Source: an uncultured Isosphaeraceae bacterium (GTDB taxonomy: Bacteria; Planctomycetota; Planctomycetia; Isosphaerales; Isosphaeraceae). Taken from it: 64,000 nucleotides of DNA. A model generated the notes under the pieces. That model was not told the origin of the DNA. It made no database searches and was given only the letters and a program-made list of their open reading frames with translations. The translations under genes were made by a program, and so were the position numbers. Shown one piece after another: positions 1 through 64,000 of this stretch. The stretch is taken from the NCBI GenBank assembly GCA_963823675.1, contig CAWGMT010000013.1:759177-823176 (forward strand), read 5' to 3'. Numbering within the stretch: the first letter of the stretch is position 1; every line of letters begins with the position of its first letter.

Positions 1-1262
1 GAGCTGCGCTGAATCAACCCGGATCCGCGCATGCGGCGCGGAACGGCGCCCTGGCTCGGTGTCGCGGCGACTGGACGAGGCAGAAAGGCTGGCTGGCTCG
101 CGGGTGCCGCCGTATCGGGGGTTGCGGCCGGCAGCGACATCTCGGGGCCCGTCGGAATTTGAGGGCCCGGTGTCATTGCCCTCGCGCCGCTCGCACCTTT
201 CGCACTGGCATCACCCGAGAGCGAGGTTTGTTGGCCAACCCGGATGGGCACCAGCTTTCCACCGGGCAGCCGTTCTTCAATCGTGACCGTGCTGTCCTCA
301 GCGAAAAACAGAAATGCTTCGTCGAGACGTTCGGGCTCGGCGGCCGTCTGGACCGTGATGGTCCAGCTCAGATAGCAACGTTCCGGGTCAAGAGTCTCGA
401 GCGGTGGAACCGCGCCTGGATCGGTGGCAACGGTCGTCTTACCCAGTTCGCGCAGCTCATCCAGAACACCTAATGGGTTGATTCCACGGCGCAGTACTTC
501 GGGACCGGGCACAAGCGTGATCTGGTAGGTCCTCAAATTCGCGTCATCGGTCGCTGCCGGCGAGCTGTCTGGTGGCGTCGCGGCCGGCGGGACCGCAGCT
601 CGGTCCATCCTTCGGGCCTTGCGCCGACTCGGCGCCGGCTTGGAAGTCTCTGGAATCGCAGCCGACGGTGCTTTCCGGCGCTTCGATTTTGGTGCCTTCG
701 AAATCGGCTCACGTTCCTTTGGCGACGCGGACGCATCGGCTGTCCTGGGTTGTGGTTCAGGGGATAATCGCGCGAGCCGACCAGGGGCGGGGACCGATGC
801 GATCGTGGTGTCCGGCCTGATCGGAGCGGCTGCCGGAGGGACGCGCGTGGAGATCGAATGCAAGGGCGCCGCGTCGTCAGGGGGCTTTTCGGTGGTACTA
901 CCTTGTGCCGGCCCGCGCAAAAGGATCGCCAAACGCTGCGCCAGCTCCGTCGAGTGAGGAATGGGAGACTTGGCCGCTTCAGCCTCGACCATTGCCGCCA
1001 GGTGATCGCGCGCTTCGAGCAGCGTTGTAATGATGTCGGAATCGATCGGCAGCAAGCCGGATCGGATTCGCTCGAGGACGGCCTCGATGTTGTGGGTGAA
1101 TTCGGAGATCGAGCCGAGACCGACCATGGCCGCCGCTCCCTTGAGCGTGTGTGCGGCCCGAAACGTCTTATCGAGGTGCGCGCGGTCCGTCTGCTTGCGC
1201 TCGAGGTCCATCAGTCCTTCTTCAAGACTGATGAGAAGCTCGCGCGCTTCCTCAAAGAACAT
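1..1262 (-). CDS. CheA-like histidine kinase, N-terminal portion (Hpt/P1 domain, Pro/Ala linker, P2-like region); gene runs off the window start
   Basis: The minus-strand frame is open from the window edge, so it is absent from the ORF track (no in-window stop). Translation of 960-1262 gives MFFEEARELLISLEEGLMDLE...FRAAHTLKGAAAMVGLGSISEFTHNIEAVLERIRSG, a canonical Hpt phosphotransfer motif with the conserved His. Downstream is a P/A-rich linker followed by LGVLDELRELGKTTVATDPG. Near positions 1-60 another frame reads HARIRVDSAQL, resembling the CheA P3 start (TIRVD..LD), which suggests an additional frameshift around 250-290. Confidence 0.65.
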   Translation of the reverse strand, partial: MFFEEARELLISLEEGLMDLERKQTDRAHLDKTFRAAHTLKGAAAMVGLGSISEFTHNIEAVLERIRSGLLPIDSDIITTLLEARDHLAAMVEAEAAKSPIPHSTELAQRLAILLRGPAQGSTTEKPPDDAAPLHSISTRVPPAAAPIRPDTTIASVPAPGRLARLSPEPQPRTADASASPKEREPISKAPKSKRRKAPSAAIPETSKPAPSRRKARRMDRAAVPPAATPPDSSPAATDDANLRTYQITLVPGPEVLRRGINPLGVLDELRELGKTTVATDPGAVPPLETLDPERCYLSWTITVQTAAEPERLDEAFLFFAEDSTVTIEERLPGGKLVPIRVGQQTSLSGDASAKGASGARAMTPGPQIPTGPEMSLPAATPDTAAPASQPAFLPRPVAATPSQGAVPRRMRGSGLIQRS

Positions 1263-1340
1263 CTCGCGGAAACGGTCGTCCGAACTGCTACTCAAGTTCC
1301 AAAGTCCTTAACGCGATCGCAGGTTCGTGGGCCTCTGTGT

Positions 1341-1715
1341 TTAGCGCGGCAAGACGCGCCGAACCCAACGTCTGAGCGTTTCCGGTTCTATCGGCTTCAC
1401 CAGCCAACCTGTAACTCCTTGACGATGCGCCGGCTCAAAGTCACTGGCCTGGTGGCACGACAGGACGAGAACCGGCAAAAAACGATGCGCCGGCAGGTCG
1501 CGCACAGCCGCCACCAAGGAAAGCCCGTCACGATTCGGCATCTCCAGGTCGGTCAGCAGGAGGTCGCAGTGCGAATCGCGCAGGACCTGCAAGGCGGCCT
1601 CGCCGTCGGCGACCGAGATCACCTTCAGGTCCAGGTCGCCAAGCTGTTCGGCCACCCACCGTCGCACCGAAGCGCTGTCATCCGCGTGCAAAACCGTTTT
1701 ACTCATGAGATTCAT
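1341..1715 (-). CDS. single-domain CheY-like response regulator (REC)
   Basis: ORF 1341..1904 trimmed to the internal start MNLMSKTVLHADDS. The phospho-acceptor D and DLEMP..DGL are typical REC motifs, and ...KPIEPETL is REC-like. Confidence 0.8.
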   Translation of the reverse strand: MNLMSKTVLHADDSASVRRWVAEQLGDLDLKVISVADGEAALQVLRDSHCDLLLTDLEMPNRDGLSLVAAVRDLPAHRFLPVLVLSCHQASDFEPAHRQGVTGWLVKPIEPETLRRWVRRVLPR

Positions 1716-1750
1716 CGCGACTGGTACCTGGGATGCTCCACGCACCTCCG

Positions 1751-2047
1751 TCAGCTCTGATGCGCTGCAAGCCAACCCGACAAACCGGCTCGTTCGGCGA
1801 TATCGACGCAACCTTGGGGCGTATTGAGCAGGACCACATTCCGGCCGCGGCTCTCTGCCGACTTCGCACCAGAAATCAGCAGTTGGAACCCGGCCAGATC
1901 CCATGGTCCCGAATCGCTCAGATCGATCCGAAGACGCTTCCCTAGAGCGATCGCGGCCTGCAAAGTCTCGCGGACCACCAAAACCTCGTACAGAGTCACA
2001 GGGCCTGACAAGACAACCGTTTGGGGTTCTTTTGATTCGACCGTCAT
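1751..2047 (-). CDS. STAS-domain anti-sigma-factor antagonist (SpoIIAA/RsbV-like)
   Basis: 98 aa. The VVLSGPVTLYEV..LQAAI pattern with a phosphorylatable DLSDSGPWDLAGFQLLI is the STAS fold signature. It sits in an operon with the PP2C gene. Confidence 0.75.
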   Translation of the reverse strand: MTVESKEPQTVVLSGPVTLYEVLVVRETLQAAIALGKRLRIDLSDSGPWDLAGFQLLISGAKSAESRGRNVVLLNTPQGCVDIAERAGLSGWLAAHQS

Positions 2048-2198
2048 GGTCCGATCCTGATCGAGAGACCAGTGCGCGCCGGAGTTATGTTAGGCTCACC
2101 CCTGCTGGACTTGAGATCGAGGGAGCAGAAACCGCTGACCCGAGATGGTCTCGAACGCCCAACTTAGTTTAACATGCCGCGAGAGGCTTGGGGAGCGT

Positions 2199-9758: not shown

Positions 9759-12700
9759 TCAGACGATCCCATGCTTTTTCAGCTTGCTGAAAAAAGTGCT
9801 TCGCGGAATTCCGAGCAGGCGTGCTGCGACGCTCTTGTTGCCCTTGGCTTCATTGAGGATGTCGAGAAGCCGCTGGCGCTCGTAGGCAAGGAATTCCGCA
9901 TTCCACTCTTCGGCCGCTGGAGACTCGCGGTCGACTTGAGTCGAGGATGACGGCTCTGTCAGCGAGTGTGACACAGCCGAAGAGCCCGGCAGCGCGGGCA
10001 GGCCAGCGACAAAACCCGACTTGCTGGCAAGGGAAAGTGCCGGGGTTGCCGCGGCGCTGGGGAGTCGTGGGCGAACTCGCCGCCGGATCGGTTGCCGCAG
10101 CTCCGGCGGCAAGTCACTCAGCGTCACGGCCGGACCATCGGCCAGCACGACCGCTCGTTCCAGGACGTTTTCCAGCTCGCGAATATTTCCCGGCCACTCA
10201 TGGGCGACGAGCGCTTCGACCGCCTCTGGCTCGAGGTGAGTGACGAACTTGCCGGTTCTTTGCGACTGGACCTTCAGGAAAAAGACCGCCAGCTCGAAGA
10301 TGTCTTCGCGGCGCTCGCGCAGCGGGGCGCTTGCAGGCAGATCACATTGAGACGGTAGTACAGATCTTCGCGGAACCGCCCGGCGCGAATCAGAGCCTCC
10401 AGGTCTTGGTGCGTCGCCGCCAAGATTCGGACATCAACTTTGATCGGCTGCGAGCTGCCCACCCGTTCGAACGACATCTCCTGGAGAACGCGGAGGAGCT
10501 TGGTCTGCACTTCCAGGTTGATATCGCCGATCTCGTCCAGGAATAACGTCCCACCGTTGGCCTGCTCGAACCGGCCGACTCGATCGCGATCCGCCCCCGT
10601 GAAGGCGCCCTTGACGTGGCCGAAGAGCTCGCTTTCCAGCAGGCTCTGAGACAACGCGGCACAATGGACCTTGACAAATGGCCGCGCCCGCGCGAACTGG
10701 CGTGGTGGATCGCCATTGCCAGCAACTCCTTGCCAGTGCCGCTTTCGCCGCGGATCAGCACGGCGGAGTGTGTCGCCGCTACTTTTTGGGCCATTCTGTT
10801 CATCGTTCGAACCGGGGTGCTCGAACCGATGATGCCGTCAAAGGCACGGGAGAGATCGAACTGGTCGCCGGCGCGCTCCGCGATGGCGTGTTCACTGGAC
10901 GGCCCGACCCCCACGACTTCTCGCACCCGTTCGGCTCGATCCCGCAGTTGATCTTGAAGAATCAGAATGCGTCGTTGCTGTTCGGCGATCTTCTCGACCT
11001 TGTCACGTAATTCGCGATTCAAGCTTTCCAGTGTTTGCTGAATGTCGGCGGAATGCAGGACCAGAGTGGCAACTGAGCTCAGAGCCGCCAGGAAGGCCAT
11101 TTCTTCATCCTCGTAGGGCATGCCGCTGCGCTTGGGACCGAGCACCAAGAGCCCGGCAACGTGGCCATCGCCTCCCAGGGCGGCAGCCGCCTCGCCTCCC
11201 AGAGCAATCATCGCATCGGTGGCGTCGTCCGACGAGCTGCTCAGTACGGGGGGATGCGAGAGGCGGACGGTGGGTGATTGCCGCAGCCGCGCCACGAGCG
11301 GATTGTCGGCATGAAGGGTCCGCTCATCGGGCGTAGGGCCGTGACTCGCGATGAGCGAGAGCGGCCGGCCCGGCGCTTCTGCGAGGTACAGGGCTCCCCA
11401 TTCGAGCCGCAAGACCTCGGCCGCCGCCTCCAGCAACCGGCGGCCCAGTGTCACCCGGTCAATCAGGCTGCCGACTGCCAGGCGCATCTTCTGCATCGCT
11501 CGATCGAACTTGTATTTCTCCCGGAAGAAGTGTCGATCGATCACCCGTTGGTATCGCCCGCGCACGACCTCCGAGACAATCAAGACGAAGATCACCGACA
11601 CGGCTGCCACCAGAGCCCCTCGCGAGGTCGCGTGCGTCGCGAACAACTGATCTCCGATCAACTTGCCAAACACCAAGAGCAGGGCCGAGTAGATCAATCC
11701 AGGCGTCAGGCTAAACGCGAAATACACCGCGCTTCGATTGATGATCGCTTCGACCTGCATGAGCTTGTAGCGCGTGATGCTGAACGCGTGGGCCATCGTG
11801 TAGAGCAACGATACGCCAAACATCGGCCACGCAGCGTTGTTCCGCCCCAGCGTCGCCGGATCGCGCCAGGCCTGCGCCAGCAAGTACGCAATGAGACCGG
11901 AAGCGATGACCGACGCCAGCAGGATCCATTGAACCTGATTCCGTTCGGCGCGTGTCCGCGCGTTGCGGTAGCTGGCCGCAAGACAGAAGAGGCACGCGCC
12001 GAAGGTCACCGCGGCGAGCGCGACATAGCCCAGCGCCAGTCCCCGGACCATCTCAAAGGCCGCGGCTGCTCGCAGGCTCTGTTCGTGCCTCGAGAGCCAC
12101 CGCGCCGAATACATGGTTCCCCAGAGCGCAAGCAGGTAGGCCGTCGCGATCCCGTAAAGGACGCCCAGCACCCGGCGGCCATGACGCTGGAGAATCGGAT
12201 TGCGCCGAGGAAAGACCAGATAGAAATGCAGGTTGACCACCGGCACGAAAACGGCAAACAAGGCGAACGGATAGATCAAGGCAGGCTCGTGGACGATCTC
12301 GGTCCAGTGATAGCCTCCCATGTAAGCGCCGACCGTGACGATGCAGAGCGCGAAGAACCACTGGGCCGAGTCGTCATCCGGGCGCTTCCAGAAGACACGC
12401 GCACCGATGCCGAAAATCAGTAGTTCCTGAAGGAACCAGACGCAAGACCAAAAATAAGTACGAGCCGGTGGATACTGCACAACGACTGCGGCAGTGCAAA
12501 TCTCTCCGCTCGCCTGGTCGCGCCACTTCACGTCGATTGTCTGACCGACTCGCCCGTTCAGATCCCGCATCGCCTGAAGGTAGTCCGCATAAATCCCCTC
12601 ATTAATGCGCACCTGACCGATCCACAACAGCGTGTCGCCTACTTCGGGCCGCCTGTCATGCCAGACATATTCCGGCGGAATCTCTTCACCCAGCTTCGTC

Positions 12701-12951
12701 CCGAACATGCAACGCGCGCCGATTGTGCCCATCCATGCGACGTGGGTAAGCACCGCGATCGAGTAGAGGATGACCCCTAATGAGCACCCCATCCAGAAGG
12801 TACGCAACAGCGTGCGATTCTTCGACGTGCCGAGCGTCGTAAACCGTGCGCCAGGGACACCCCTCGTCACCCAGGAGTCGCCCCTACCGAAGCGACCCCG
12901 ACTTTCTGCGTTGAATGGAGGTCGCGGGCTTTGACTTGCTGGTAGATCCAT
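9759..12951 (-). CDS. sigma-54-dependent transcriptional activator with a large N-terminal polytopic membrane sensor and GAF-like domain; split into three frames by two single-base frameshifts
   Basis: ORF 10390..12951 has more than 10 TM helices, an extracytoplasmic segment, a GAF-like region, then [18 protein letters not shown] (Walker A). ORF 10274..10654 is the sigma-54 AAA+ core ([49 protein letters not shown]). ORF 9759..10148 is PLRERREDI...[10 protein letters not shown] plus the Fis-type HTH ([20 protein letters not shown]). Adding one C or G at about 10681 and about 10325 restores one continuous frame. Confidence 0.8.
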
Positions 12952-50593: not shown

Positions 50594-53161
50594 ATGGGCT
50601 TTTCCCGGCTGAATTTGAACGATCTGCGAAACCAAGATGGCAGGAGAGAGCAGAAGACTCCCTTCGAGCATCAACTCGACGCTTTCAAAGCCCTCGACCG
50701 TACTTTTTCCTTCACGGATGCCAACGGCAAGGGCGCTTTGCTCGTCCTTCCTACCGGGGCCGGCAAGACGTTTACGACTGTCAAATGGCTTTGCGATCGG
50801 GCTCTTACGAGAAACATGAAGATTCTCTGGCTGGCACAGTCGTTTTACCTCCTCGACCAAGCGTTCAAGGAGTTTAACGACTACGCTGCCTGGATTCCTG
50901 AGCCCAGGGAAATGCTTCACATCCGCCGTGTGTCGAGCAACCCATCGCATCAGCTACCCCATTCCGTCGAGATAACGGATGACGTGGTAATCATGACCAC
51001 GCAAACAGCCATCAAAAACCTGCACTCGGACGCGACGGACCGAACGGGTAGCAGGGTTATCAGCAGTTTCAGACGGTTTGTCGAGGAGGCCAAGAATAAC
51101 GGTCTGTTCGTCGTGCTGGATGAGGCCCACCATGCCCCCGCTCACGGGTGCCGGCACTTGTTAGTTAACGAAGACGAATCCACGCCTGGAATTCGCCGGC
51201 TCGTGCCGAGCGCGTACCTTCTTGGCCTCACCGCTACGCCCACTTACACGGACGAGACAAGAAGAGGATGGCTCAGCAGGATTTTTGAGGCAGGGATTAT
51301 CCATAACGCGGACAAGACCGAGCTCATGGCTCAAGGCATCTTGGCAAGGCCCAAATACATCGAAAGGCCGACGGGGAGGGAGCTCATCGTTTCCGATGAT
51401 CTCTACAACCGCCTTGTCAGGGAACACAAGGACTTGCCTGAAAACGTGATCGAAATCCTCGCGGGCGATTCCCGGCGTAACGATTACATTGTGCAGGAAT
51501 ATGTCCAGAACAGGGATCGCTACGGGAAGACGATCATATTTGCCGACCGCTGGTTCCAGTGTGTCTACCTGAAGGAGAAGCTACTTGACAAAGGCGTCAG
51601 AGCCGATGCCATTTACTCGCACATCGATGCCGATCCCGGGTCCGCTGAGGCCCGAAACAAGCGGACGGCAAGCGACAACGAGCGCATCTTGAACGAATTC
51701 AAGCACGGCAAGGACAGCTCGGGGCGGGACACTCTTGAGGTACTGATAAATGTAAGAATGCTGACGGAAGGAGCCGATGTACCTAGCGTCCGAACAGTTT
51801 TCCTGACCCGCCAGACAACGAGTGCCATCCTGATGACCCAAATGATCGGGCGAGCTTTGCGTGGCAGAAGGGCAGGCGGAGGCGATGAGGCGAACATCGT
51901 CCTGTTCATCGATAACTGGAAACGACTTATCGATTGGGCTACGCCGGCGTCGCTTGACGGCGGCACAGCGCAGGAGCGAGTGATCCGCGGTTACTATCCG
52001 CTGGAATACATTTCGATCCGCTTGGTGGAGGAACTTACTCGCCAGGTCAACAGTGGCGGCGATATTCCCTCTCCGCCTTTCTCTCAGATCGTTCCTGTCG
52101 GATGGTTTCAGACAGAAATCGTTGTGGCGACTGAAGACGCTGCCGACGAAACGCAGTCGTTCACCGAGTTCGTGATGGCCTATGAGGGTACAAAGCCGAA
52201 ATTCGACGCCTTCATTGAACATTTCCAGCGCAGCGTACCGGAAGGATGGGACAAAGAGTCCCTGTCATTCGAATGGATGATGGCGCAGACACAGCGCTGG
52301 GTGGCCAAGTTTTTTGACCTCGAAGCAGATCAACTCGGCGGCGGACTGGAGATGAACCTCGCACGGATCGCCCGCCACATCGCGCAGACGCAAACAGCGC
52401 CGCCTTTTCACTCGTTCGAGGATCGCCCCAAATATGATTTGGACGAGTTAGCCCGACGCCGCCTTAACAATAGCCCGGTCGAGAACAGCACATTTTTGGA
52501 ATCAGAGTTCACCAGACCGGGGAATTTATGGAGGGTTTTCTACAAGACAATCGACCGTTTCCACACGGCATTCGACGGAGCGGTAAGGCGAGCTCTGCGC
52601 CCAGGACGAGGCATGTCGCCCACGACCTTGACCTCGAGCGAAAAACGCAGCAAGCGGGAACTATCGGAGGCCGAGAAAGAGCAAGTCAAGCGGCGGGACA
52701 GCTACGCGTGCTTGTGCTGCGGTGCGTCTGGCAGAGGCGTTCGGCTCCAGATTGACCACATCGTTTCGTACAACATCGGAGGGGAAACGAGCGTAGAGAA
52801 TTCCCAGACGCTTTGCAGCGTTTGCAACCGAGAAAAGAAAATCAACGAGCTGAACTTCCTTCAAACGGCGACGCTGCTGCCCGGGCCGCCCGAACCGGAA
52901 CTGCTCACCCGCTCCGGCACGGAAGACGTCAAACGGACGATCACGAGACTTGTCAACCACTTCTACCGGTGCCGGGCCGTCTCTGAAGTTCGGATGCACA
53001 CGCGGTCCACTGGCCGATTCTACTCGACGTGGGAGATCGAACTGTTCGCTGGCAACAAGCCGAAGTGGCTGAATGATCACAAGTGGTCTCTAGTCGACCA
53101 CATCCAGGAGAATTTCGGCTGCTCGCATGTTACTGACATCAGAATTGTTGGCGCGAGGTAA
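50594..53161 (+). CDS. SF2 helicase (ResIII-like DEAH N-terminal domain plus helicase C-terminal domain) fused to a C-terminal HNH endonuclease; candidate single-gene defense factor
   Basis: Start ATG at 50594 with GGAGG 12 nt upstream (the ORF track begins earlier at 50414). Walker A LVLPTGAGKTF. DEAH box VVLDEAHHA. Motif VI region TQMIGRALRG. The HNH reads CLCCGASGRGVRLQIDHIVSYNIGGETSVENSQTLCSVCN. GC is markedly lower than the surrounding sequence. Confidence 0.85.
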   Translation: MGFSRLNLNDLRNQDGRREQKTPFEHQLDAFKALDRTFSFTDANGKGALLVLPTGAGKTFTTVKWLCDRALTRNMKILWLAQSFYLLDQAFKEFNDYAAWIPEPREMLHIRRVSSNPSHQLPHSVEITDDVVIMTTQTAIKNLHSDATDRTGSRVISSFRRFVEEAKNNGLFVVLDEAHHAPAHGCRHLLVNEDESTPGIRRLVPSAYLLGLTATPTYTDETRRGWLSRIFEAGIIHNADKTELMAQGILARPKYIERPTGRELIVSDDLYNRLVREHKDLPENVIEILAGDSRRNDYIVQEYVQNRDRYGKTIIFADRWFQCVYLKEKLLDKGVRADAIYSHIDADPGSAEARNKRTASDNERILNEFKHGKDSSGRDTLEVLINVRMLTEGADVPSVRTVFLTRQTTSAILMTQMIGRALRGRRAGGGDEANIVLFIDNWKRLIDWATPASLDGGTAQERVIRGYYPLEYISIRLVEELTRQVNSGGDIPSPPFSQIVPVGWFQTEIVVATEDAADETQSFTEFVMAYEGTKPKFDAFIEHFQRSVPEGWDKESLSFEWMMAQTQRWVAKFFDLEADQLGGGLEMNLARIARHIAQTQTAPPFHSFEDRPKYDLDELARRRLNNSPVENSTFLESEFTRPGNLWRVFYKTIDRFHTAFDGAVRRALRPGRGMSPTTLTSSEKRSKRELSEAEKEQVKRRDSYACLCCGASGRGVRLQIDHIVSYNIGGETSVENSQTLCSVCNREKKINELNFLQTATLLPGPPEPELLTRSGTEDVKRTITRLVNHFYRCRAVSEVRMHTRSTGRFYSTWEIELFAGNKPKWLNDHKWSLVDHIQENFGCSHVTDIRIVGAR

Positions 53162-53520
53162 AGAGTTCAAAGCGCCCAGCGCCGCGCAGGCCGGCAGTGG
53201 GAGAGCAGCCGATTACGTCAAGCAAAGGAGCGCTCCAAGGTCCCCTTCCAGTCGCGTGACCGATCGGGGTCAAGTGTGGACGTGCCGTTCTGCTCTCTTG
53301 TTACTGATCTCGAGCGCAGTGCCGTATTTCGGGCCTCATAGACAACGTAACGGCCGGACTCCTCCCGGCTCGGCACAGACGATGACGCCGCTGACGGAAT
53401 CTGCGTTCCCAATCGGGGTTTCTTTCGTCGATTGGAACGGGCAACACGAATGATAGGGGGGGGGGATCGGCTTCGATAGACCACGGAGGCGGAGCGTGGC
53501 TTAGTTTGGCAGCAGAGCCT

Positions 53521-54990
53521 TTATCGCGCCGCCGCCTGATTGCCCACTCGCTTGTATCCCGGCGCGGCGATGATGGTGCGCAGCAGCTTGCCATCCGCCA
53601 GGTTCCACAGCCGGACTTCGCCGTCCCAGCCTCCCGAGGCCACGGTCTTGCCGTCGCGAGAGATGGCCAGCGAGTAGATCCAGTCCTGATGGCCCGGCAT
53701 CCGGCGGACCTGCGAGCCTTTGTCGGTGAAGACCGCGACGTTCTTGTCGGCACCACACGCGAGCAGGTTCTTGCCGTCGGGCGTAAACCGCAGCTTGAAG
53801 ACCGTGCCGCCGAAACCGCCGATCTCGCGGATCGCCTTGGCCTCGCTGTCCGGGTTCCAGACCCTGATGCGGTTGTCTTCGCCGCCGGTGGCAACCCCTT
53901 TGCCGTCAGGGGTGAACGAGACCGTGTAAACCGGCGCGCCGTGGCCGGGAAATGTCACCAGCGATTCCTTTTTGTCAACGTCGAAGACCTTGGCGGTCTT
54001 GTCGCGGCTCGCCGTCGCCAGTCGCTTCCCGTCCGGGCTGAAGGCGATCCCCAGAACCCAATCGGCATGGTCTTCGATCTGGAACAGGAGCTTTCCGGTC
54101 TCGACCTCGAAGAGTCGCAGGGTCCGGTCGGCCCCCGCGGTGGCGATCTTCTTGCTATCCGGGCTGAATGCGACCGCGAACGCCGCGTCCTGGGTTTCGA
54201 CCAGGTCGCGAACCGGCTTGCCGCCTCCATCGGGCTCGGCCAGCCAGAGCTTGACCACGCCGAAGACGCCCGGGTCGCCGCTGGCGGTGGCCAGCCACTT
54301 GCCGTCCGGGCTGTAGGCGATGTCGTAGACCCGCTCGGCCAGTCCGCTTAACCTGCGCCTCAGCTTGCCGTCGGCTGTATTCCAGAAGGTGATCTCGTGA
54401 TAACCCGACGCCGCGATCGTCGAGCCGTCCCGGCTGAATGCCAGGGCCGTGATCGGGACGGTCGCCGGATAATCCTGGGGGATATTGACGCGCCTTGTCT
54501 TGCGCAGCACGATCGTCCAGTCGTCGTTGGGGGAACCGCCGTCATATTTGGCTCCCTCCGCAACCCATCGCTCGATCACGGCGATCTTCGCGGGTGTAAG
54601 CGGGTCCTGCTTGTACGGCATCCTTGGCTGGCCTTCCGGGCCGATCACCTCGACGAGATTGCTCTCGTCGGGTTTGCCCGGCTCGAGCGTGGTCCCCTCG
54701 CCCTGCTGGCCGCCCTTGGCGAGCTGGGCAAAGGTCGTCATGACGTATTTGCTCTCCGTCTTCTTCGGGTTGTGGCATGCAATACAGCTTTCGACCAGGA
54801 TGGGCGCCACGTCTCGAATGAAGCTCACAGGAGGCTCCTTCGACTTTCCTTTCGCCTCCGGGATCGCCGATCCAGGACGCCGGCCGCCTTGATCGGCCGG
54901 TCCCTGGCCAGCCTCGCTCGCAACGGAAATCACCAGGAACAGCCCGAGGGCCAGGCCGGTCGTGACGCAGGTGCGCAGAATTCGAGACAT
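53521..54990 (-). CDS. Planctomycete-type cytochrome c (CxxCH) domain fused to a WD40 beta-propeller
   Basis: Signal peptide, then heme motif CIACH. At least six WD-like repeats (SPDGK..A.GD......W). Start at MSRIL (54990) with GGAGGA upstream. Confidence 0.85.
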   Translation of the reverse strand: MSRILRTCVTTGLALGLFLVISVASEAGQGPADQGGRRPGSAIPEAKGKSKEPPVSFIRDVAPILVESCIACHNPKKTESKYVMTTFAQLAKGGQQGEGTTLEPGKPDESNLVEVIGPEGQPRMPYKQDPLTPAKIAVIERWVAEGAKYDGGSPNDDWTIVLRKTRRVNIPQDYPATVPITALAFSRDGSTIAASGYHEITFWNTADGKLRRRLSGLAERVYDIAYSPDGKWLATASGDPGVFGVVKLWLAEPDGGGKPVRDLVETQDAAFAVAFSPDSKKIATAGADRTLRLFEVETGKLLFQIEDHADWVLGIAFSPDGKRLATASRDKTAKVFDVDKKESLVTFPGHGAPVYTVSFTPDGKGVATGGEDNRIRVWNPDSEAKAIREIGGFGGTVFKLRFTPDGKNLLACGADKNVAVFTDKGSQVRRMPGHQDWIYSLAISRDGKTVASGGWDGEVRLWNLADGKLLRTIIAAPGYKRVGNQAAAR

Positions 54991-55035
54991 TCTCTGGGTC
55001 CTCCGAGCATCGGCCGTTGGCCGCATCCCTTCATC

Positions 55036-57401
55036 TTACTTGATCGGCGCGACTTTCACAGCGAGGGGAGTGGTCGGAACGGGGTAATCCTTCTTGTTGA
55101 CCTGAAAGATCAGGGCGAGCTGGGTGTTCGCGGATGTGGGTGCCGCCTTGGGCTCGGCGGCGATCTTCACGGCAAAGGCCGCGGCCGCGCCGCTGAGTGT
55201 GACTGGATCGGCCTTCACTCCAGCCGGCAAACCATTGATCCGAACGGTCACGGGGCCGTCGAACGTTCCCTTGCGCACCAGCTTTCCCTTGACCAGGGCG
55301 GTGGAGCCCGGCTTGACCTCGACGCTGGCCGCGGCCAGCTCGGCCGCGACCGGATGCACCACGCTCAAGGTCACGGCCGGAACCGCGATGGTCCGGTCCG
55401 CGCCGGCAAATTTGCCTTTGGCCAGAAGCGCAATGGTCATGGTTCCAAGCACCGTCTCGACCGGGCGCTGACCGTCACGCTGCCCTCGAGCAATTTCGCG
55501 GCGATCGGCGCGCCGGTGACGGTCACTCCCGGAGGCAGGCTCAGTCCTGAGATCGCGATCGGCGCATCGGCTCCTTTGGTCCGCGCGACCTTGATGGGGA
55601 TCTTCGCGCTAAAGCCGCGAGGAACCTCGATCGGCTGGGCCGGAGTGTCGAGCGCCACGGCCGTGGGAAGGGCCGGCGCGGCCACCAGCCCATACTGGGT
55701 CATCGCGCCGGCCGGGGGAGTCGCTTGCGGGGTGAATACCAATAACTGCGAGGCAAGCCGCTCGAAAGGACCATCGGTGCGCTGGCCCCGCCCCACCAGC
55801 TTGATCGCAGTAGCGGGAAACGCGGCGTCGGCGCTCGCCGAGACCGTGATGACGCCGGTCGTCTGGCCGGCGGCGACGCTCCCGGGCCGAACGCTCAGAC
55901 CCGCCGGGGGCTCGGCGACGGTCAGGGTAATCGGCCCGCTATAGCCCCTCCGCCGGACTGTCGCACTGATCGCCGCCGACCCTCCGCGCGGCACGCTCAC
56001 CTGGGGTTCGCTCAAGACGAGCTCGAAATCGGGCAGGAGCGGCTCGACCACGATCCGGTAGGGGAAGCCGACACCGCCCCGCTTTTCAAGGTCGCGAATG
56101 ACCAGCGTGATCTCATTCGTACCGCCGGGAATCGTCAGGTCGAACGACGGATCGGCCAGGACGATCGGCGGGGCCTGCTGACCATTGCGCGGGGGCCGGG
56201 CGATCGTCGTGTCGTCGGCATTCGCCAGAACACCGCCTCCCTTGCCGAGCACCTGGACAACTCCGTCGAGATTCGAGCCCAGGTCGGCGGCCTTTACCGT
56301 GATCCGCAGTCGCTCGCCGGGCGTCGCCACCACGCCGAAGCGGTCTTCGTCGCCGGGCGGGTCGAGCCGGCCGTTGAAAACGACCGGTGCAACGGCCCGA
56401 ACGGGCTGGTCCGAGCGATCCGCTGGCTCGCGCAACTCGGGATACGACGAGACAACCAGCGGCGGGAGCGATTCCACGTCGTAGTTCGGCTCGCCGGCCT
56501 TGACGCCGTCGATCATCGCGCTCGTGATCCGAGGCAGGAATAGCTCGGTGCCTGGGATGGGTTGAACGGACGCCGCGGCGATCTTGGTCCCCGCGAGCGA
56601 CCCGCCGCGAAGCTCAAGCCCGAGCGTTTCCCCCTGCCGGCCTCCCAGCGGATAGACCTCCTCGGCCATCGGCAAGTTGCCGATCACCAGCCGATAGCCC
56701 GGCCGGCTCGCTCCCTGATAGCGTGAGTCGGAGATCTCGACGACGTAATCCGTATCCTCGGGCAAAACGGCGGCGAGTCGCGCGTCGGTCACCAGGCCGG
56801 GCGAGTCGTCGGCCGAGGCGATATAGGTCCGCGTGGCCGAGGCCTTCGTCAACCGAATGGTGGGGTCGATAGCCGACCCGATCCGCGCGCACTGGGCGTC
56901 GACCACGATCTTCTGCCCCTTCTTGCCGTGAAAGCGGAAGAAGTCGACGTCGTTGCCCGCAACTTGACCCTCCACCACCAGCGGCGGGTCGGGAATCGGC
57001 TGGGCTGCCTCGAAGACGCTATTGTCTTCCTTCTCGCTGACCTGGGGCAGTTGACCGACCGCGAACAGGAAGGGGTTGGAGATCCCGTCGTCGGTCTGAA
57101 CCCGGATTGGATAAACCCCGACCGCGACGTCGCCCGCGATCGTCACCTTGGGCTTCCAGCTCGATGCGCTCTGCCCGGCCGATGGCGACTCGATCTTGAA
57201 CGGGAATGGAGCGATCAGCCGGGGGTTCCCCGCAAGCTCGGAGCCGCTGATCGAAAGCTCGGTGGCCACGCCCCGCTGCACACCATGGGGCGTGATGTCG
57301 CCGATCTTCGGAGGCGCCGCAAGACACTGGCTGGAAAAGGCAACCAGAGTGAAAAACGTCAGCACAAACGTGGCTGGCGTTAGACCATGTTGAGGACGCA
57401 T
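55036..57401 (-). CDS. large secreted repeat protein with a PPC/pre-peptidase-C-terminal-like domain; -1 frameshift at a CCGGG run near 55460-55466
   Basis: ORFs 55437..57401 (signal peptide, DVDFFRFHGKKGQKIVVDAQC..DPTIRL, PPC-like) and 55036..55452 are contiguous if one C/G is added. Ig-like repeat character throughout. Confidence 0.55.
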
Positions 57402-57620
57402 GGGAAAACACTCAGGGCGGGATAAGGTCGCGATGGCGGGGTTAAGTCTTTGTTCAACGTAATTTTAACGTCCCACGAACGCCGAAGTTTGTCAATGATA
57501 AGAGCGGGGCTACTCGCCCTGAAGCAGCATGGTGCGCCTGCGAACGTCGCGAGGTCGTCGCGACTCTGATCGCGATACTCAACGACCGGCTTCGGTTCCC
57601 TGCCTTGATGATTTCATCCT

Positions 57621-57990
57621 TCACCCTTCATCCTTTTCTTTGTCTCCAGGCCGCCAAGGCAGCTTCGAGCAAGTGCTCGAGCCCGGGGTTTGCGACGTCG
57701 GCGACAGTTCGAAGTTGCACATGCCGGTGAACCTTGCCGCTCCCTTGCAGTAACTGCGCGGGGTCCGGCAGCTCGGAGCCGCGCCGATCCCAACCTTGAC
57801 GCCGGTTCGGCTCATGAGCAGCGTGCAGATCGTGTCCTTGTAACCGGGCCCGTAACCGTAACCGATGAGCCGCGCGGACCGATCGACCGTTTCGGTGGCA
57901 TCGGGCACGGTGTGCACCACGAGCTCGCGCACTGCCAGCGCGATGTCTCTCACGTTCGGCGGGTAGAGGGCCAAGAACTCGACGACCACC
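57621..57990 (-). CDS. DUF1801-domain protein (YdhG-like)
   Basis: EFLALYPPNVRDIALAVRELVVHTVPDATETV...KDTICTLLMSRTGVKVGI fits the DUF1801 pattern. The start is uncertain (GTG near 57990, or it is fused with the upstream ORF). Confidence 0.45.
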
Positions 57991-57993
57991 ACG

Positions 57994-58260
57994 TCACCGG
58001 GTTTCAACAAGGTCGTCTTGCTCCGGGTATTCCGCGTCGAACAGCCGCGCGGAATAGGCGGCAACATCCGTCATGTCTTGTTCGTTCCACGCCTCGCGGA
58101 TGTCTAGAACGCTTTGTGGCGGAATCTCGTTCAGGATGAGCGTGGCCAACCGGAACCGCTCCGATGGCGGTAGCGGTTTGATTGCTTCGTCGTAAATCTC
58201 TTCGATCGTCATTTCAATCGGTCTCGCCGAGCGCTGAGGCATACGATCCACTCCCTCCAT
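57994..58260 (-). CDS. small addiction-module-component-like protein
   Basis: TIEEIYDEAIKPLPPSERFRLATLILNEIPP resembles the LP..ER..LA..L..SL antitoxin-like family. Confidence 0.35.
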   Translation of the reverse strand: MEGVDRMPQRSARPIEMTIEEIYDEAIKPLPPSERFRLATLILNEIPPQSVLDIREAWNEQDMTDVAAYSARLFDAEYPEQDDLVETR

Positions 58261-58401
58261 TCACGACATTCTAGCGGTTCAACCTGTGCGAGCCAAGCTC
58301 GCGATGATCGAGCAGCGCCTCGGTTAGTCAACCCCTCAGCGAAGGATCCACACTTCGTTTGGCTCGTTGGCGCGTAGTACTGTCAGGCCGCCCCCGCGCG
58401 C

Positions 58402-59073
58402 TTAACCGCCCGCCACCTCTTTCCAGCGCTTGTCCCATTCCCACATCCGGAGCGCCTGCTCGGGCGTGAGCGGCGCGCCGAGCTGGTTGGCCCAGTGGCA
58501 GATCTGGCCGCGGTGATGCGCGTCGTGCGTGATTGCAGCGCAGACAAGAGCGACGACATCAGGACGAAGGTCGGGAACGTGGCCGCCGGCTTCGATCGAA
58601 TGCTCGATCAGGCGCACCATCGCTGCCGCGCTCGTCGCGAGCGCCTCCTTGGCCTCGCTCGGCGTGACCTCCGCTCGATCGAGCTTTCCTGGAGGTTTCT
58701 CGTCCCGGACGGACATCGCGAGCCGCATGCACCGCACGTTATGCATGTGGGCGAACGTGGTCGCGATATTGCGCCGCTTCGAGCACGCAGGCTGGGCCCT
58801 CCAGATCTTTGGGTCAAGGGAGTCGATCAGAACCTGGTTGATCCGCTCGTTCGTCAGGTAAGCCTCGACAAGAGCGCGGCCGAGGTCGATAGGCTCGCGT
58901 CGGTTTCGTGCTCCAGTGTGGGTCGGTGGTGTGGCCGTGGATTTCGTTGCCGTCTTTTCGTGGCGGCGTGCATTCTTGCCGCTTAGGGCGTCGCTCTTGG
59001 GCATGTCAAATTCACCGGGCTTCCGGATTCTCGATTTGAGCAGCAGCTTCTCGGCATCCTGGAGCGTGCTCAT
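58402..59073 (-). CDS. DinB/YfiT-like (DinB_2 superfamily) metal-dependent protein
   Basis: Conserved HMHNVR...H and THDAHHRGQ histidine motifs. Start at MSTLQD. Confidence 0.65.
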   Translation of the reverse strand: MSTLQDAEKLLLKSRIRKPGEFDMPKSDALSGKNARRHEKTATKSTATPPTHTGARNRREPIDLGRALVEAYLTNERINQVLIDSLDPKIWRAQPACSKRRNIATTFAHMHNVRCMRLAMSVRDEKPPGKLDRAEVTPSEAKEALATSAAAMVRLIEHSIEAGGHVPDLRPDVVALVCAAITHDAHHRGQICHWANQLGAPLTPEQALRMWEWDKRWKEVAGG

Positions 59074-59323
59074 CGCTTGACCGCCCTCTCCGATTCTACG
59101 GCAGGGCATCAATAACATGAGGAGCCGCCAATTATCATACTCCAAGGTACGTCACGCCGGCCATTCGGTCACGTGGCTCTGTCCCCTACTCACGCGCTCG
59201 AATTCCAGGAAAGTCGCCAAGAAGCCAGCCGAGCGAAGGAGGAATCGCGCTCCCGAGTCCACTTGGATCATCGCCGCGGGGATGGCATAATCGAAGGATC
59301 GAAGACCAAAAAAGGAGGCTGTC

Positions 59324-59881
59324 ATGTCCACGGCATCTGTGACCACGCCCTTGATGACCGCCGAAGAGTTCGCCGAGCGGCCCGATCCGGGCTATCCCGA
59401 GGAGCTCGTTCGAGGAAGGATCGTCCCAATGTCGGTACCCGATCGACGCCACGGTCAAGTTTGCGGGCACGCGTACATCCTGATTCGCTCGTTCGTGGAC
59501 GCCCACGACCTCGGCCATGTCTTGTGTAACGACTCCGGCGTCATCACGGAGCGCGACCCGGACTGCGTGCGCGGGGCAGACGTCGCCTACTACAGCTTCA
59601 ACCGCTTGCCGCGTGGGCCGCTGCCGCGGTCTTATGGGCCGGAAGTGCCCGAGCTGGTGGTCGAGGTTCGCTCGAAAGGCGACAAGTGGCCCAAGGTGCT
59701 CGCCAAGGTGGTGGAATACCTCGACGCGGGCGTGGCCGTCGTCGTCGTTCTGGACGACGAGCGCCAAGTCGCTCAAGTCTTCACGGCTGACAGCACCCGA
59801 TTTCTCGGGCCTGACGACGAGCTGACGATCCCCGAGGTCCTGCCCGGCTTCGCCGTCGCCTTACGGCGGTTCTTTGAGTGA
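59324..59881 (+). CDS. Uma2-family (DUF820) PD-(D/E)xK putative endonuclease, paralog 1
   Basis: LTAEEFAERPDPGYPEELVRGRIV..PELVVEV are Uma2 motifs. It is about 70 percent identical to the next gene. Confidence 0.8.
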   Translation: MSTASVTTPLMTAEEFAERPDPGYPEELVRGRIVPMSVPDRRHGQVCGHAYILIRSFVDAHDLGHVLCNDSGVITERDPDCVRGADVAYYSFNRLPRGPLPRSYGPEVPELVVEVRSKGDKWPKVLAKVVEYLDAGVAVVVVLDDERQVAQVFTADSTRFLGPDDELTIPEVLPGFAVALRRFFE

Positions 59882-60046
59882 AGCACAAACTGGCCTCGTT
59901 CGAGGGACCGAGAAGCTCCACGGAGGAAACTGGGACGCAGCTCGTTTATCCGTGAGGGATTGTCATACGACCGGAACGGGTCGACTGGGATCGCCTGCGT
60001 GGGAATGCGATAATTCAACGATCGAAGACCCGAGGAGGAGATCGCC

Positions 60047-60607
60047 ATGTCCACGGCATCAGTGCCCACGCCCTTGCTGACCGCCGAAGAGTTCGCCGAA
60101 CGGCCCGACCCGGGCAATCCCGAAGAGCTTGTACGAGGAAGGATCGTGCTCATGCCCATGCCCAAACCGAGACACGGGCAAATCTGCGGTCGAGCATACT
60201 TCTTGTTCCGCGTACACGTCGATGCTCAGGACTTGGGCCATTTGCTCAGCAACGACTCGGGCGTGATCACCGAGCGAGGTCCCGACACGGTCCGCGGTGC
60301 TGACATCGCCTTCTATAGCTTTGCCCGCGTTCCCAAGGGGCCGTTGCCCGATCGCTATCTGGACATCGCGCCCGACCTGGTTGTCGAGGTCCTCTCACCG
60401 GGCGACCGCTGGCCGAAGGTGCTGCGCAAGGTGGCGGAGTATCTCGATGCCGGGGTAACCGTCGTCTTGGTGCTTGACGACCAGCGCCGACAAGCGCAGC
60501 TTTACCGAGCCGACGGGACAACACGCCTGCTCGACGCCGAAGAGGAGCTTTCCATTCCCGATCTGCTCGGCGATTTCCGCGTTCGGGTCGGGCGGTTCTT
60601 CGAGTAA
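60047..60607 (+). CDS. Uma2-family (DUF820) PD-(D/E)xK putative endonuclease, paralog 2 (tandem duplicate)
   Basis: Same architecture and length as 59324..59881. The upstream leaders are also similar. Confidence 0.8.
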   Translation: MSTASVPTPLLTAEEFAERPDPGNPEELVRGRIVLMPMPKPRHGQICGRAYFLFRVHVDAQDLGHLLSNDSGVITERGPDTVRGADIAFYSFARVPKGPLPDRYLDIAPDLVVEVLSPGDRWPKVLRKVAEYLDAGVTVVLVLDDQRRQAQLYRADGTTRLLDAEEELSIPDLLGDFRVRVGRFFE

Positions 60608-60838
60608 TGCGCTCGCCGGTCCTGCTCGTTGCTTCGGGGAACGTTCGTATCCCGCGGCATCGGACGATTAGCCATGGTGACCGTGCGGATCACGCCGCGA
60701 TGGGAGACAAATGGTTTACTTCGAAGGATTTCGATCATGACGGCCGAGCGACGTACCTCCCAACTCTGGCTCTGATTATCCCCGGCGACATTTCCGTCAA
60801 AGGCCAGAGCCTGAAGCGACCCGAGCGCTTTGACCGAT

Positions 60839-60916
60839 CCGGGCGAAAGGCGACAAAAATCCCTGCGCGGAGCGAAAGGCGACAACAACTTCTTTTCGCG
60901 GAGCGAAAGGCGACAA
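60839..60916 (+). repeat. three direct copies of an 18-nt motif (C)GGAGCGAAAGGCGACAA spaced about 30 bp apart, upstream of the DUF1559 gene
   Basis: Copies at 60839, 60868 and 60899. Each overlaps small hairpins (GCGAAAG/CTTTTCGC). The same core occurs at 26024-26050 in reverse orientation. Confidence 0.6.
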
Positions 60917-61046
60917 TGATTTCGCCCAGCGTTGCCGTTGATTCTTCCCCGAAGGAATTCGGCTTGTCGCTCATGGCCGGGCGCGCGAAACTGGATGGAT
61001 CATGTCTCTTTGATCGGGGTTCAATTCCCCAAGAGGAGGGCTAATC

Positions 61047-62225
61047 ATGATCCGGCCGGTTCGCCCGCGCAGTGGGTTTACGTTGATCGAGCTCTTGGTC
61101 GTCATCGCCATTATCGGGGTGTTGATCGCCTTGTTGTTGCCCGCCGTTCAGTCGGCTCGTGAGTCGGCGCAACGCGCGCAATGCATCAACAACTTGAAGC
61201 AACTGGGCCTGGCCGTGCAGAGCTATGTCACGGCGACGAATGTTCTGCCGGCTCAGACACTCGATAACGTCATGCTTCCCAACGGAATGGGAAACGTGAA
61301 CTGGTTCACGTCCTGGACCGCCAGCATCCTTCCCCACCTCGAACAGCAGCCTGCGTTCAACGCGCTCAACTTCAATGTCCCCATGATGGAACTGGCGCCA
61401 CCGATCCTGGGCGCGAACACGACCGTGGGGCTCATGACGATTGCGACTTTGCTTTGCCCGTCCGAGAGCGTGACCAAGTCGCCGAGCTACGCGCTTTCGG
61501 GGGCCACGCCGGCCGGCTACACGGCTCAATTCGGCGTGGCGAACTACGCCGGCAATTACGGCGGGCCGCCCACGATCCGCGCATGCAGCGGCGCGATCGT
61601 CCCTGTCAAAGGCAACAAGTCCCTCGTCTTCAACCTGATGTCGGCGGCGAACTTGACCTCGCCGCTCTCGGCCGGGCCCGTTCGCATGCAGATGATCACC
61701 GACGGCGCCGCGAGCACGGCACTTTTCAGCGAGCACCTGCTGTCGAGCACCCCTCCCTATATTGCGAATGATTCGAGCGTCACCCCGGGAGGACGGAACG
61801 CCAGGCGCGGGCTCTTCCCGGTTCCCATCACGGTCACGCTGGATCAGGCGAGTACCGCCAGCGCGCAGGCGTTCGTCAGTGCGTGCCAGAGCCTGCCGGC
61901 GGGCACTCCGGTGCTCGCGGGCATCGGTTTCGGGGCCCAGTGGCTCATGAGCATCGACTTCGCCCCGGCCAACAACGCCTACACCCATGTGATGGCCCCC
62001 AACAGCATCTCCTGTACCGGGTCTAACGACCCATCGGGCTACTTTTCGAGCGCCAACGGCGGATTTGGCGCCGCGATCTCCGCGACCAGCAACCATCCGG
62101 GCGGGGTCAACGTGGGATTCTGCGACGGCTCGGTGAAGTTCATCAACAATTCCATCGCCCTTCAGACCTGGTGGGGGCTGGGGACACGAAACGGCCATGA
62201 GATCATCGGCGCCGACACGTACTGA
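61047..62225 (+). CDS. DUF1559 protein with a type IV pilin-like (prepilin cleavage/methylation) N-terminus and an H-X9-DG C-terminal motif
   Basis: GFTLIELLVVIAIIGVLIALLLPAVQSARE and the C-terminal SNHPGGVNVGFCDGSVKFI. Confidence 0.85.
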   Translation: MIRPVRPRSGFTLIELLVVIAIIGVLIALLLPAVQSARESAQRAQCINNLKQLGLAVQSYVTATNVLPAQTLDNVMLPNGMGNVNWFTSWTASILPHLEQQPAFNALNFNVPMMELAPPILGANTTVGLMTIATLLCPSESVTKSPSYALSGATPAGYTAQFGVANYAGNYGGPPTIRACSGAIVPVKGNKSLVFNLMSAANLTSPLSAGPVRMQMITDGAASTALFSEHLLSSTPPYIANDSSVTPGGRNARRGLFPVPITVTLDQASTASAQAFVSACQSLPAGTPVLAGIGFGAQWLMSIDFAPANNAYTHVMAPNSISCTGSNDPSGYFSSANGGFGAAISATSNHPGGVNVGFCDGSVKFINNSIALQTWWGLGTRNGHEIIGADTY

Positions 62226-62311
62226 GCCGAGGCTGCGAGCATGCGCCTCCATGGGACGGTGGCCCACTTGATTTAGCGTTGAATACGGAAGGAAACTTCT
62301 TGGGCGAAGAG

Positions 62312-62667
62312 CGGTGGGTACTGAGGCCCGCCCCACTGGGAGAATCAAGGGATCCTGTAGAGGGGCGGGCGTCTCTGCCCGCCTCCGGAGCTTTCTTTCG
62401 CGGTGGGTACTGAGGCCCGCCCCACTGGGAGAATCAAGGGATCCTGTAGAGGGGCGGGCGTCTCTGCCCGCCTCCGGAGCTTTCTTTCGCGGCGGGCCCT
62501 GAGGCCCGCCGCGCTAAGAGAATCAAGGGATCCTCTAGTGGGGCGGGCGTCTCTGCCCGCCTCCGGAACTTTCTTTCGCGGCGGGCACTGAGGCCCGCCC
62601 CACTGGGAGAATCAACGGATCCTCTAGTGGGGCGGGCACTGAGGCCCGCCTCCGGAGCTTTCTTTCG
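62312..62667 (+). repeat. four perfect-length tandem copies of an 89-bp hairpin-forming repeat between convergent genes
   Basis: Units at 62312-62400, 62401-62489, 62490-62578 and 62579-62667. Copies 1 and 2 are identical. Copies 3 and 4 carry substitutions. Each has a GCCCGCCCC..(about 28 nt)..GGGGCGGGC stem. Confidence 0.9.
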
Positions 62668-62732
62668 TTGTGCAACGCGCAGTAACACGCTCGCGGGGAT
62701 TGGCGATGTCCAGGGCAGCGCGAGCCAACTTG

Positions 62733-64000
62733 TCAACGCCCCCGCGCTGTTCCAGACTTTCGGGCTTCCCGGCTGCGCCACCATTGCTGAAGGGTCTTCA
62801 CCCTCAAGGCGTTGCGATCACGGCCGACACCCCTCTTCGGATCGTAGGGCTCCATGTTGTGGCGGATGTTTTCAGACTCCCTGGCGTCGATATACCAGTT
62901 GAGCGTCTCGACGTTCTGCGTTTCTTGTCCAGACTGCACGGTGTCGCACGTGAAGATGACGGAGCGGAAAAACTCCTTGTCGCCGGTCACGTTGCTGAAC
63001 ATCGCGTGGAGGCCGACAATCTGCTCGTCATTGCGGAAGTACATCGACGACGAGCGCGCCGTCGCGAGGCCCTCGAACGGAATCACCACAGACTTCACGC
63101 CGTCGGCCACGAGCGAGAATAACCGTGGGAAGAGATGAAACGCTCGCGCGCTCCAGGGCCCCCGAGTGTCTATCGCGCCGTCGCCGGAGGAGGGCTCCTG
63201 AATGTCCGTGCTCAGCTTCTTGAGACGTCCTTCGTTGCGAAAGGCGCGGATCTGGACCAGCAGGACTCCCGCCGTGTTCATCTTGATCCAATCGCGGTGG
63301 CTGGCGATCCAGGCGGCGGCCAGGTTCACTCCGTAGTTATCGTAGTAGCCGGCGTCGACGACGTGGCGGGGCGGGACCGTCGGCAGGGTCACCGACGAGG
63401 TGACGTAAGGAAACGTCGCACTCATGCGTACGGCGGTCGCCAGCCGGAGCCGGTTACGACTCTCCTCGCCGAACATCCCGAAAAACTCGACGGCCGAGAC
63501 CGAGGTGAGTTCTGGGTACTCCAGATCATCGTCGGTCGGCGGTTTTGGCTTACCTTTCGCCTGGGCCTCCTTCAAGAACTGCTCGCGCAGAGCGTGGACA
63601 TCATCCGCAAGCAAGGCGCTGCCAAGGTTGACCCCCAGGTCGTGGAGCGGCTGATTGCTGATCAGCAGCCGGCGGCCATCCTCGACGAGCATCGGCGAAA
63701 AGATGATCGACGGGATCAGGCCCTCTTGCTCCTTCCGGTTGATCTCGCCGAAAGTGTGGGCGATCCCGTCGTCGAACTCGATCCAGGCGTCCTCGAGGGC
63801 GTCGCCCCGATTGTACGTCGCCCAGGGGACCAGTGAGCAGGGAAAAAAGTCGCGGAACGCAATGTGCCAGGCGATGGGCGTGAGGTAGTCGGGCACCGTC
63901 AGGGGCTTGCCCGGCCCGCCCAAGACGCCGGTTCCGTCATGGTGCCCGCTGACGTACCGCGCCGCGCCGAGCATGCCCCCCGAAGCCCCCGTGATCAGGC
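62733..64000 (-). CDS. patatin-like phospholipase family protein, 3' portion (gene continues beyond the window end)
   Basis: The frame is open to the window edge. ITGASGGGML (the GxSxG nucleophile) lies just upstream of the listed Met. The catalytic Asp motif VVDAGYYDNYGV (DGA/DGG variant) is downstream. Confidence 0.7.
   Translation of the reverse strand, partial: LITGASGGMLGAARYVSGHHDGTGVLGGPGKPLTVPDYLTPIAWHIAFRDFFPCSLVPWATYNRGDALEDAWIEFDDGIAHTFGEINRKEQEGLIPSIIFSPMLVEDGRRLLISNQPLHDLGVNLGSALLADDVHALREQFLKEAQAKGKPKPPTDDDLEYPELTSVSAVEFFGMFGEESRNRLRLATAVRMSATFPYVTSSVTLPTVPPRHVVDAGYYDNYGVNLAAAWIASHRDWIKMNTAGVLLVQIRAFRNEGRLKKLSTDIQEPSSGDGAIDTRGPWSARAFHLFPRLFSLVADGVKSVVIPFEGLATARSSSMYFRNDEQIVGLHAMFSNVTGDKEFFRSVIFTCDTVQSGQETQNVETLNWYIDARESENIRHNMEPYDPKRGVGRDRNALRVKTLQQWWRSREARKSGTARGR

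Follow-up and report, generated by a model that had tools for sequence, protein, structure and literature searches.

We have analysed 64,000 nucleotides of DNA from an uncultured Isosphaeraceae bacterium (GenBank assembly GCA_963823675.1, contig CAWGMT010000013.1, positions 759,177 to 823,176 of the forward strand; this whole stretch is called the window below), in which a number of conserved genes, among them rpsR, hisG, hisZ and cheA, are broken by small insertions and deletions (indels). The window indels are very probably systematic, motif-specific consensus errors of a long-read assembly made at GCGC and GTCGAC, with the affected genes intact in the organism. Taken as a biological finding, the pattern of frame breaks is an artefact and not a real feature of the genome; its practical value is the diagnosis of these two motifs. 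An initial annotation, made from the sequence alone, had listed 11 frame breaks and ascribed them to homopolymer miscalls rather than to pseudogenes.

Private indels at GCGC and GTCGAC

The window was compared with 25 independent loci of the same Isosphaeraceae population, which were found via exact-protein look-ups with intact window genes. The loci come from two metagenome-assembled genomes (MAGs; GCA_052147895.1 and GCA_052145515.1), several metagenome assemblies (GCA_0529158xx-0529162xx) and Logan contigs of run SRR31840446 (L010 and L023). Mostly 99.6-100% identical to the window (~99.9% for the population), they cover 58.9 kb of it (1-49687 and 53567-64000, minus a divergent stretch at 62401-62577), and the sites were compared with two to eight independent assemblies. 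Frame joins were located by tblastn of the intact proteins against the window, and domains were assigned with NCBIfam and Pfam profiles. The look-ups were empty for the open reading frames (ORFs) at 42317-43987(-), 50414-53161(+), 53521-55026(-) and 57621-58067(-), the last of which is a frameshift chimera produced by the deletion at 57784.

Fourteen indels (12 deletions and two insertions, ~1 per 4 kb) are private to the window. None was seen in any covering comparison locus, the covering Logan contigs L010 and L023 also carry the intact alleles, and in tblastn searches with the intact proteins the frames meet exactly at the deletion points. Some 10 genes are frameshifted (Table 1). In the comparison loci full-length genes were called for S18 (80 aa), the sigma-54 activator (1037 aa), HisG (358 aa), the HisZ-like protein (414 aa), CheA (821 aa), the HExxH/DUF1570-like protein (549 aa) and the PPC protein (788 aa). 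The DUF1801 gene and the IS orfB are likewise intact in the other assemblies.

The lesions are tied to two motifs and do not depend on how long a homopolymer is. Each of the 12 deletions is inside GCGC or at most 1 nt from it, compared with 6.1% of random positions (p ~3e-15); both insertions are an extra A within GTCGAC (in hisG and in the GH9 gene), and none occurs elsewhere. Substitutions follow the same pattern. G>A and C>T changes account for ~33 of the 46 private substitutions and lie almost without exception at CpG; one further group affects the inner C of GCGC (read as GTGC or GCAC), others the central CpG of GTCGAC. Misreading as GTCAAC or GTTGAC affects 14 of the 37 GTCGAC sites in the window (38%), and, counted per strand, C>T at CpG was found at 14/76 positions in GTCGAC versus 19/13858 at other CpG, while the divergence outside the motifs is ~0.03%. 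The GTCGAC misreads (e.g. at 5902, 7053, 24078 and 34939) are strongly asymmetric on the plus strand, with 12 GTCAAC versus two of the GTTGAC type.

Two variants of the motifs were considered and rejected: a broader second motif (GTCG or TCGA), given 14/76 for GTCGAC compared with 6/995 for other GTCG contexts, and a HaeII-type RGCGCY as a refinement of GCGC, whose flanks were judged inconsistent by eye, without computation.

Indels in homopolymers are a classic error of long-read sequencing (PMC6591954, PMC9262707), and the window shares with such errors, known from long-read, 454 and Ion Torrent data, the one-base indels that split conserved genes, some of them in G/C runs of 3-5 nt. Five deletions (at 35, 10324, 10687, 17624 and 27763) do lie in true runs of this length, so that the annotation's placing of the lesions in homopolymers holds for 5 of the 12. 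The other seven affect (GC)n or runs of no more than 2 nt; the one at 55464 removed a lone T that follows GCGC. Plain miscounting of run length, whatever the flanks, is nevertheless a very improbable cause. Among homopolymers of at least 3 nt, 5 of the 76 touching GCGC were discordant versus 0 of 2431 elsewhere (Fisher 2e-8); all 25 covered runs of at least 6 nt were correct, including an A9, a T8 and four 7-nt runs; and the substitutions track the same motifs as the deletions. The errors thus follow GCGC and GTCGAC, not run length as the annotation had proposed.

Genuine pseudogenisation, or a mutator lineage with deamination of 5-methylcytosine and slippage at methylated motifs, would share some features with what we observed: C>T and G>A at CpG are the signature of such deamination, and some disruptions in the window are real (the T8 run, an IS256-like insertion and the two-ORF layout at A9, all described below). 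Such an origin of the 14 indels is, however, barely credible. It would require core or essential genes (rpsR, hisG, hisZ and cheA) to be struck at ~1 per 4 kb, a rate that, extrapolated, would leave a large share of the genome inactivated, and 38% of GTCGAC sites to be altered against a background of ~0.03%. Each lesion occurs in one assembly alone and is absent from up to eight others from several samples; sharing across the population assemblies was found for T8 and in part for the IS256-like insert, but for none of the 14 motif-linked indels. The indels are nearly all deletions, and deamination does not account for the deletions in rpsR, hisG and hisZ. Lesions that are unidirectional and motif-specific, strike essential genes and are private to one assembly indicate a consensus artefact, not biology.

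Possible origin of the errors

The artefact could have arisen as follows. The source would be a long-read consensus assembly, here a 1.27-Mb contig of an uncultured Isosphaeraceae. At GCGC one base, at times a GC dinucleotide, would be dropped in or beside the motif, and T would at times be called for the inner C; in GTCGAC, CA or TG would be called for the central CpG, with an occasional extra A. The bases dropped or added in this way would shift the frame of ~10 ordinary genes, some of them essential. GCGC would carry HhaI-type 5-methylcytosine and GTCGAC a modification of the SalI/HgiDII type, and a nanopore basecaller and polisher untrained on these modifications would have made the errors. 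We infer, then, methylation of GCGC and GTCGAC in the organism and an assembly of nanopore type as the source.

Residual errors of nanopore consensus sequences are known to be dominated by methylation motifs (PMC6591954), and modified sites read with R10.4.1 yield C/G miscalls, G-to-A included (PMC11610603). The errors described for Dcm (CCWGG) and Dam (GATC) motifs (Wick et al. 2019, PMC6591954; Liu et al. 2024, PMC11610603) resemble ours in that the motifs are short palindromes, the C/G miscalls lie at or beside the presumed modified base, and the errors survive polishing and do not appear when the same organism is assembled from short reads. They differ in that our motifs are GCGC and GTCGAC rather than those of Dcm and Dam, with methylation and platform presumed, and in that the main error at GCGC is a frameshifting deletion of 1-2 nt rather than a substitution. 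The evidence on the platform is circumstantial: the source contig, of 1.27 Mb, is in NCBI and ENA, and many of the related Isosphaeraceae loci in GTDB belong to Nanopore-only 'MFD' MAGs, for which Flye assembly was followed by one Medaka round (PMC12313526).

Several points weigh against the explanation by motif-specific consensus errors. Both the sequencing platform and the state of methylation in the source are inferred, not observed. No methyltransferase gene was found within the 64-kb window, where the only hits were chance motif matches inside a ResIII-helicase/HNH protein. C>T at a methylated C could in principle be real deamination, and the counts of synonymous and non-synonymous changes are too small to separate the two. 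GTCGAC is a palindrome, and why GTCAAC outnumbers GTTGAC 12:2 is not accounted for. Independent coverage leaves out 3.9 kb (49688-53566), and the deletions at 35, 26687, 27763, 55464 and 57784 are each backed by one independent assembly; at these five, ORF restoration and the lengths of homologs are consistent with the single assembly.

A wider reading, which we hold tentatively and with slightly less than even confidence, is that the error spectrum is an indirect read-out of the methylome, revealing two active methyltransferase specificities (GCGC and GTCGAC), and that the frame breaks at A9 and T8, the only true ones at homopolymers in the window, are biology and not error. In this sense the analysis yields, as a by-product, the testable prediction that two motifs are methylated in this uncultured planctomycete.

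Genes affected by the errors

Frame breaks were confirmed at 10 of the 11 places listed in the initial annotation, and its verdict of errors rather than pseudogenes stands for eight of them; A9, T8 and the cheA site are the exceptions. The sites said to need an added base are, that of cheA apart, indeed cases of assembly error, with lesions private to the window and an intact gene in independent assemblies. The caution advised over pseudogene calls was justified for most sites.

Table 1. Lesions and genuine frame breaks in the window (L numbers are comparison loci; positions are those of the window)
Feature	Position	Strand	Lesion or structure	Comparison
cheA	1-1295 (runs past window start)	-	deletion at 35-36, GGGCGC to GGCGC (missing G)	L005
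Sigma-54-dependent activator	9759-12870	-	two deletions, both abutting GCGC: G5 to G4 at 10324-10327; C4 to C3 at 10687-10689	
hisG	15615-16691	-	C missing at 15864 (GCGCGCC to GCGCGC); GTCGAC to GTTGAAC at 15697-15703; Pfam HisG match	L005, L006, L008
hisZ-like gene	16706-17949	-	one G missing at 17624-17625 (GGGCGC to GGCGC)	
HExxH/DUF1570-like protein	26189-27833	+	deletions at 26687 within GCGCGC and at 27763-27765, CCC to CC flanked by GCGC on both sides	L001
Intergenic 2-nt deletion	28012-28013		(GC)3 to (GC)2	L001, L002
rpsR (S18)	28272-28513	-	one A missing at 28365-28366; coding strand GCGCAAGCGC to GCGCAGCGC	4 assemblies
IS transposase	40365-42169	+	orfA 40365-40790 (HTH); orfB 40753-42169 (DDE_Tnp_1, +1 frame); genuine A9 40762-40770 at junction	
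IS orfB, 2-nt consensus deletion	41574	+	in (GC)n; tblastn split at 41576 in the window only	
DUF5671 membrane protein gene	45682-46318	+	split into 86 aa + 131 aa by genuine T8 at 45917-45924	
GH9 endoglucanase gene	46917-49798	+	extra A at 48611 (GTCGAC to GTCGAAC); G>A at 48601	
IS256-like element in GH9 gene	47492-48510		8-bp target duplication; IS256 NCBIfam and Pfam matches	
PPC-domain protein	55039-57401	-	one base missing at 55464 (coding strand GCGCT to GCGC; lone T, no homopolymer)	
DUF1801 protein (127 aa intact)	57631-58010	-	one base missing at 57784 within (CG)n	

For rpsR the missing A falls inside the range predicted by the annotation (28358-28372). The intact S18 passes the NCBIfam model TIGR00165 (70.4 bits; cutoff 38.75 bits), and the C-terminal fragment encoded in the window fails it (33.8 bits). 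The sigma-54 activator had been predicted to lack a base twice; the G4 near 10325 was named exactly, and the second lesion, expected at ~10681, is the one at 10687-10689. Five to six independent assemblies have the extra base in this gene, and three tblastn frames join exactly at 10325 and 10687.

The missing C of hisG likewise lies in the expected interval (15850-15880). The second hisG lesion, one substitution plus one extra A, was not on the list. The deletion at 15864 and the extra A at 15701, 163 nt apart, compensate each other, with the last ~27 codons in the original frame. Such compensating lesions could hide the error from simple ORF-length checks. In the hisZ-like gene a G is indeed missing, ~10 nt from the G4 at 17611-17614 to which the loss had been assigned; that run is the same in three assemblies.

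A base is lost within the predicted range of the HExxH gene (26680-26690) and of the PPC gene (55460-55466). The homologs of the PPC protein have ~780-790 aa; the truncated form of the window (P0125, 654 aa) sits on a 1,271,440-bp contig in NCBI and ENA, and an intact, near-identical form (P0122) exists. The cheA frameshift placed at 250-290 was not found: positions 36-1295 (minus strand) encode CheA aa 1-420 in one frame with 100% identity, and the sole lesion is at 35. Besides the lesion at 15697-15703, the list had omitted the 2-nt indels at 28012 and 41574 and the deletions at 27763 and 57784.

If the indels were taken at face value, ~10 genes per 64 kb, S18 and two histidine-biosynthesis genes among them, would be miscalled as pseudogenes, and metabolic reconstructions would lose real functions. 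Fixes directed at homopolymers would miss most of the errors and risk 'repairing' the A9 and T8 runs, which are genuine; motif-aware or short-read polishing is needed.

The A9 run of the IS transposase

Programmed recoding, by ribosomal frameshifting or transcriptional slippage, is highly unlikely as the general explanation of the frameshifted genes. The 14 GCGC/GTCGAC sites have no slippery sequence, and, being absent from the sister assemblies, they are not conserved recoding signals. Recoding does hold for the A9 run of the insertion sequence (IS) transposase, where the A9 and the +1 frame of orfB are kept in homologs of many phyla, and it is conceivable for the T8 run of the DUF5671 gene.

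The transposase is encoded by orfA (141 aa, HTH_28/HTH_32) and orfB (473 aa when intact), which overlap at the A9; the fused product would have ~610 aa. The annotation had seen correctly that the two frames separate at 40762-40770, but not that this is no error, since the run is identical in six assemblies. We surveyed 78 related loci (L026-L103) from GTDB genomes, in which 68 junctions could be scored. The loci represent Planctomycetota, Acidobacteriota, Proteobacteria, Chloroflexota, Bacteroidota, Verrucomicrobiota and other phyla, with orfB identities of 39-93%. At 57 of the 68 homologous junctions the run is exactly A9 and orfB lies in the +1 frame; fused variants are rare (L100 with A8, and L084, in which the run is broken to AAGAAA).

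Conservation across homologs is the published comparative criterion for functional transcriptional slippage in IS elements (PMC1088944), and in reporter assays a run of nine As slips efficiently (PMC3711429). With its conservation the A9 agrees with this criterion, which points to programmed recoding rather than error. Judging from this comparative evidence, then, the A9 is a programmed recoding site and a genuine sequence; a transcriptional and a translational shift are both allowed. As in the A9 slippage known from other IS transposases (Baranov et al. 2005, PMC1088944; Antonov et al. 2013, PMC3711429), orfA and orfB overlap at a conserved A9. The present element differs from the common -1 arrangement: its orfB is read in +1, and slippage would have to remove one A from the transcript or add two.

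No NCBIfam IS-family model matched orfB, a tblastn search with the IS against PLSDB plasmids gave no match, and a search for terminal inverted repeats at the ends of this IS did not resolve them. The element may represent an unclassified IS family that is spread across many phyla and whose transposase depends on an invariant A9 for access to the +1 frame. A well-supported, conserved recoding site in such a widespread family is a second by-product of the analysis.

The T8 run of the DUF5671 gene

For the DUF5671 membrane protein the initial annotation again located the change of frame correctly (at 45917-45924), and again its verdict of error falls, since the T8 is the same in six independent assemblies, including the Logan contig L023 built from raw reads. 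Reading the run as T7 gives a DUF5671 protein of 211 aa that has the same sequence across the junction, WAISLIFLFFTYIE, as its closest homologs; of the 120 homologs listed (identity 68-93%), almost all have exactly 211 aa.

The run has thus truly expanded by one T (+1), and the T8 is fixed in this population. The gene may have become a true pseudogene recently, or it may be a 'pseudo-pseudogene' rescued by slippage, as genes are called in which an A/T run has been lengthened into a slippage-prone one (PMC1088944). The likeness lies in the 211-aa reading, which needs T7 where the genome has T8; the difference is that the run has 8 nt, not 9, and rescue by slippage would be putative. According to one report, runs of eight allow productive slippage in some bacteria (PMC1088944); the sequences listed for transcriptional realignment include Tn with n>8 (PMC3711429).

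The GH9 endoglucanase gene

The 3' part of the GH9 endoglucanase gene had been thought to carry a surplus base in the G4 near 48575. The change of frame is a real error, caused by the extra A at 48611; the G4 is unchanged. The claim that the gene is not a pseudogene failed for another reason, as it is truly interrupted in this genome by the IS256-like insertion. Loci L020, L022 and L023 lack the insert and have GTCGAC at the site of the extra A, and L021 has a longer copy of the insert, which marks it as a genuine polymorphic insertion. The window copy is ~400 nt shorter than that of L021, and its transposase lacks the middle part.

The GH9 region was compared through a neighbouring gene of 147 aa. 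Near-identical GH9 proteins were not found in the protein collection, where the best match had ~90% identity, and a 50-mer from the GH9 gene had no exact match among the GTDB species representatives.

Other features of the window

The window has a GC content of 62%, and the closest named relatives of its proteins are Isosphaeraceae/Isosphaerales MAGs, Paludisphaera and Aquisphaera (all Planctomycetota). The segment 49688-53566, whose end lies near a G10 run (53456-53465), has a lower GC content (57-59%) and encodes a 915-aa ResIII/DEAD helicase with an HNH nuclease (50414-53161). It may be a variable or mobile island, since the contigs of the other assemblies end at both of its edges.

Two further tracts look like recombination or strain variation and not error. 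At 36248-36685, in the 5' part of a glutamate dehydrogenase gene, comparison locus L003 differs from the window at ~90 positions, and at 62250-62400, an intergenic stretch, L013 differs by mixed indels and substitutions.

One more locus, L104 (ENA ERZ25039509, contig_198310), comes from a long-read assembly of a strain ~92% identical. It has a split PPC gene (597+207 aa, at 3207) and a split SBP_bac_10 gene (263+129 aa, at 11702). We rejected it as evidence on the motifs: its PPC gene is broken by an additional G in GATC-ACC, outside GCGC, and this is uninformative on the motifs of our organism. Frameshift errors seem to be common in assemblies like this one, at other sequence contexts.

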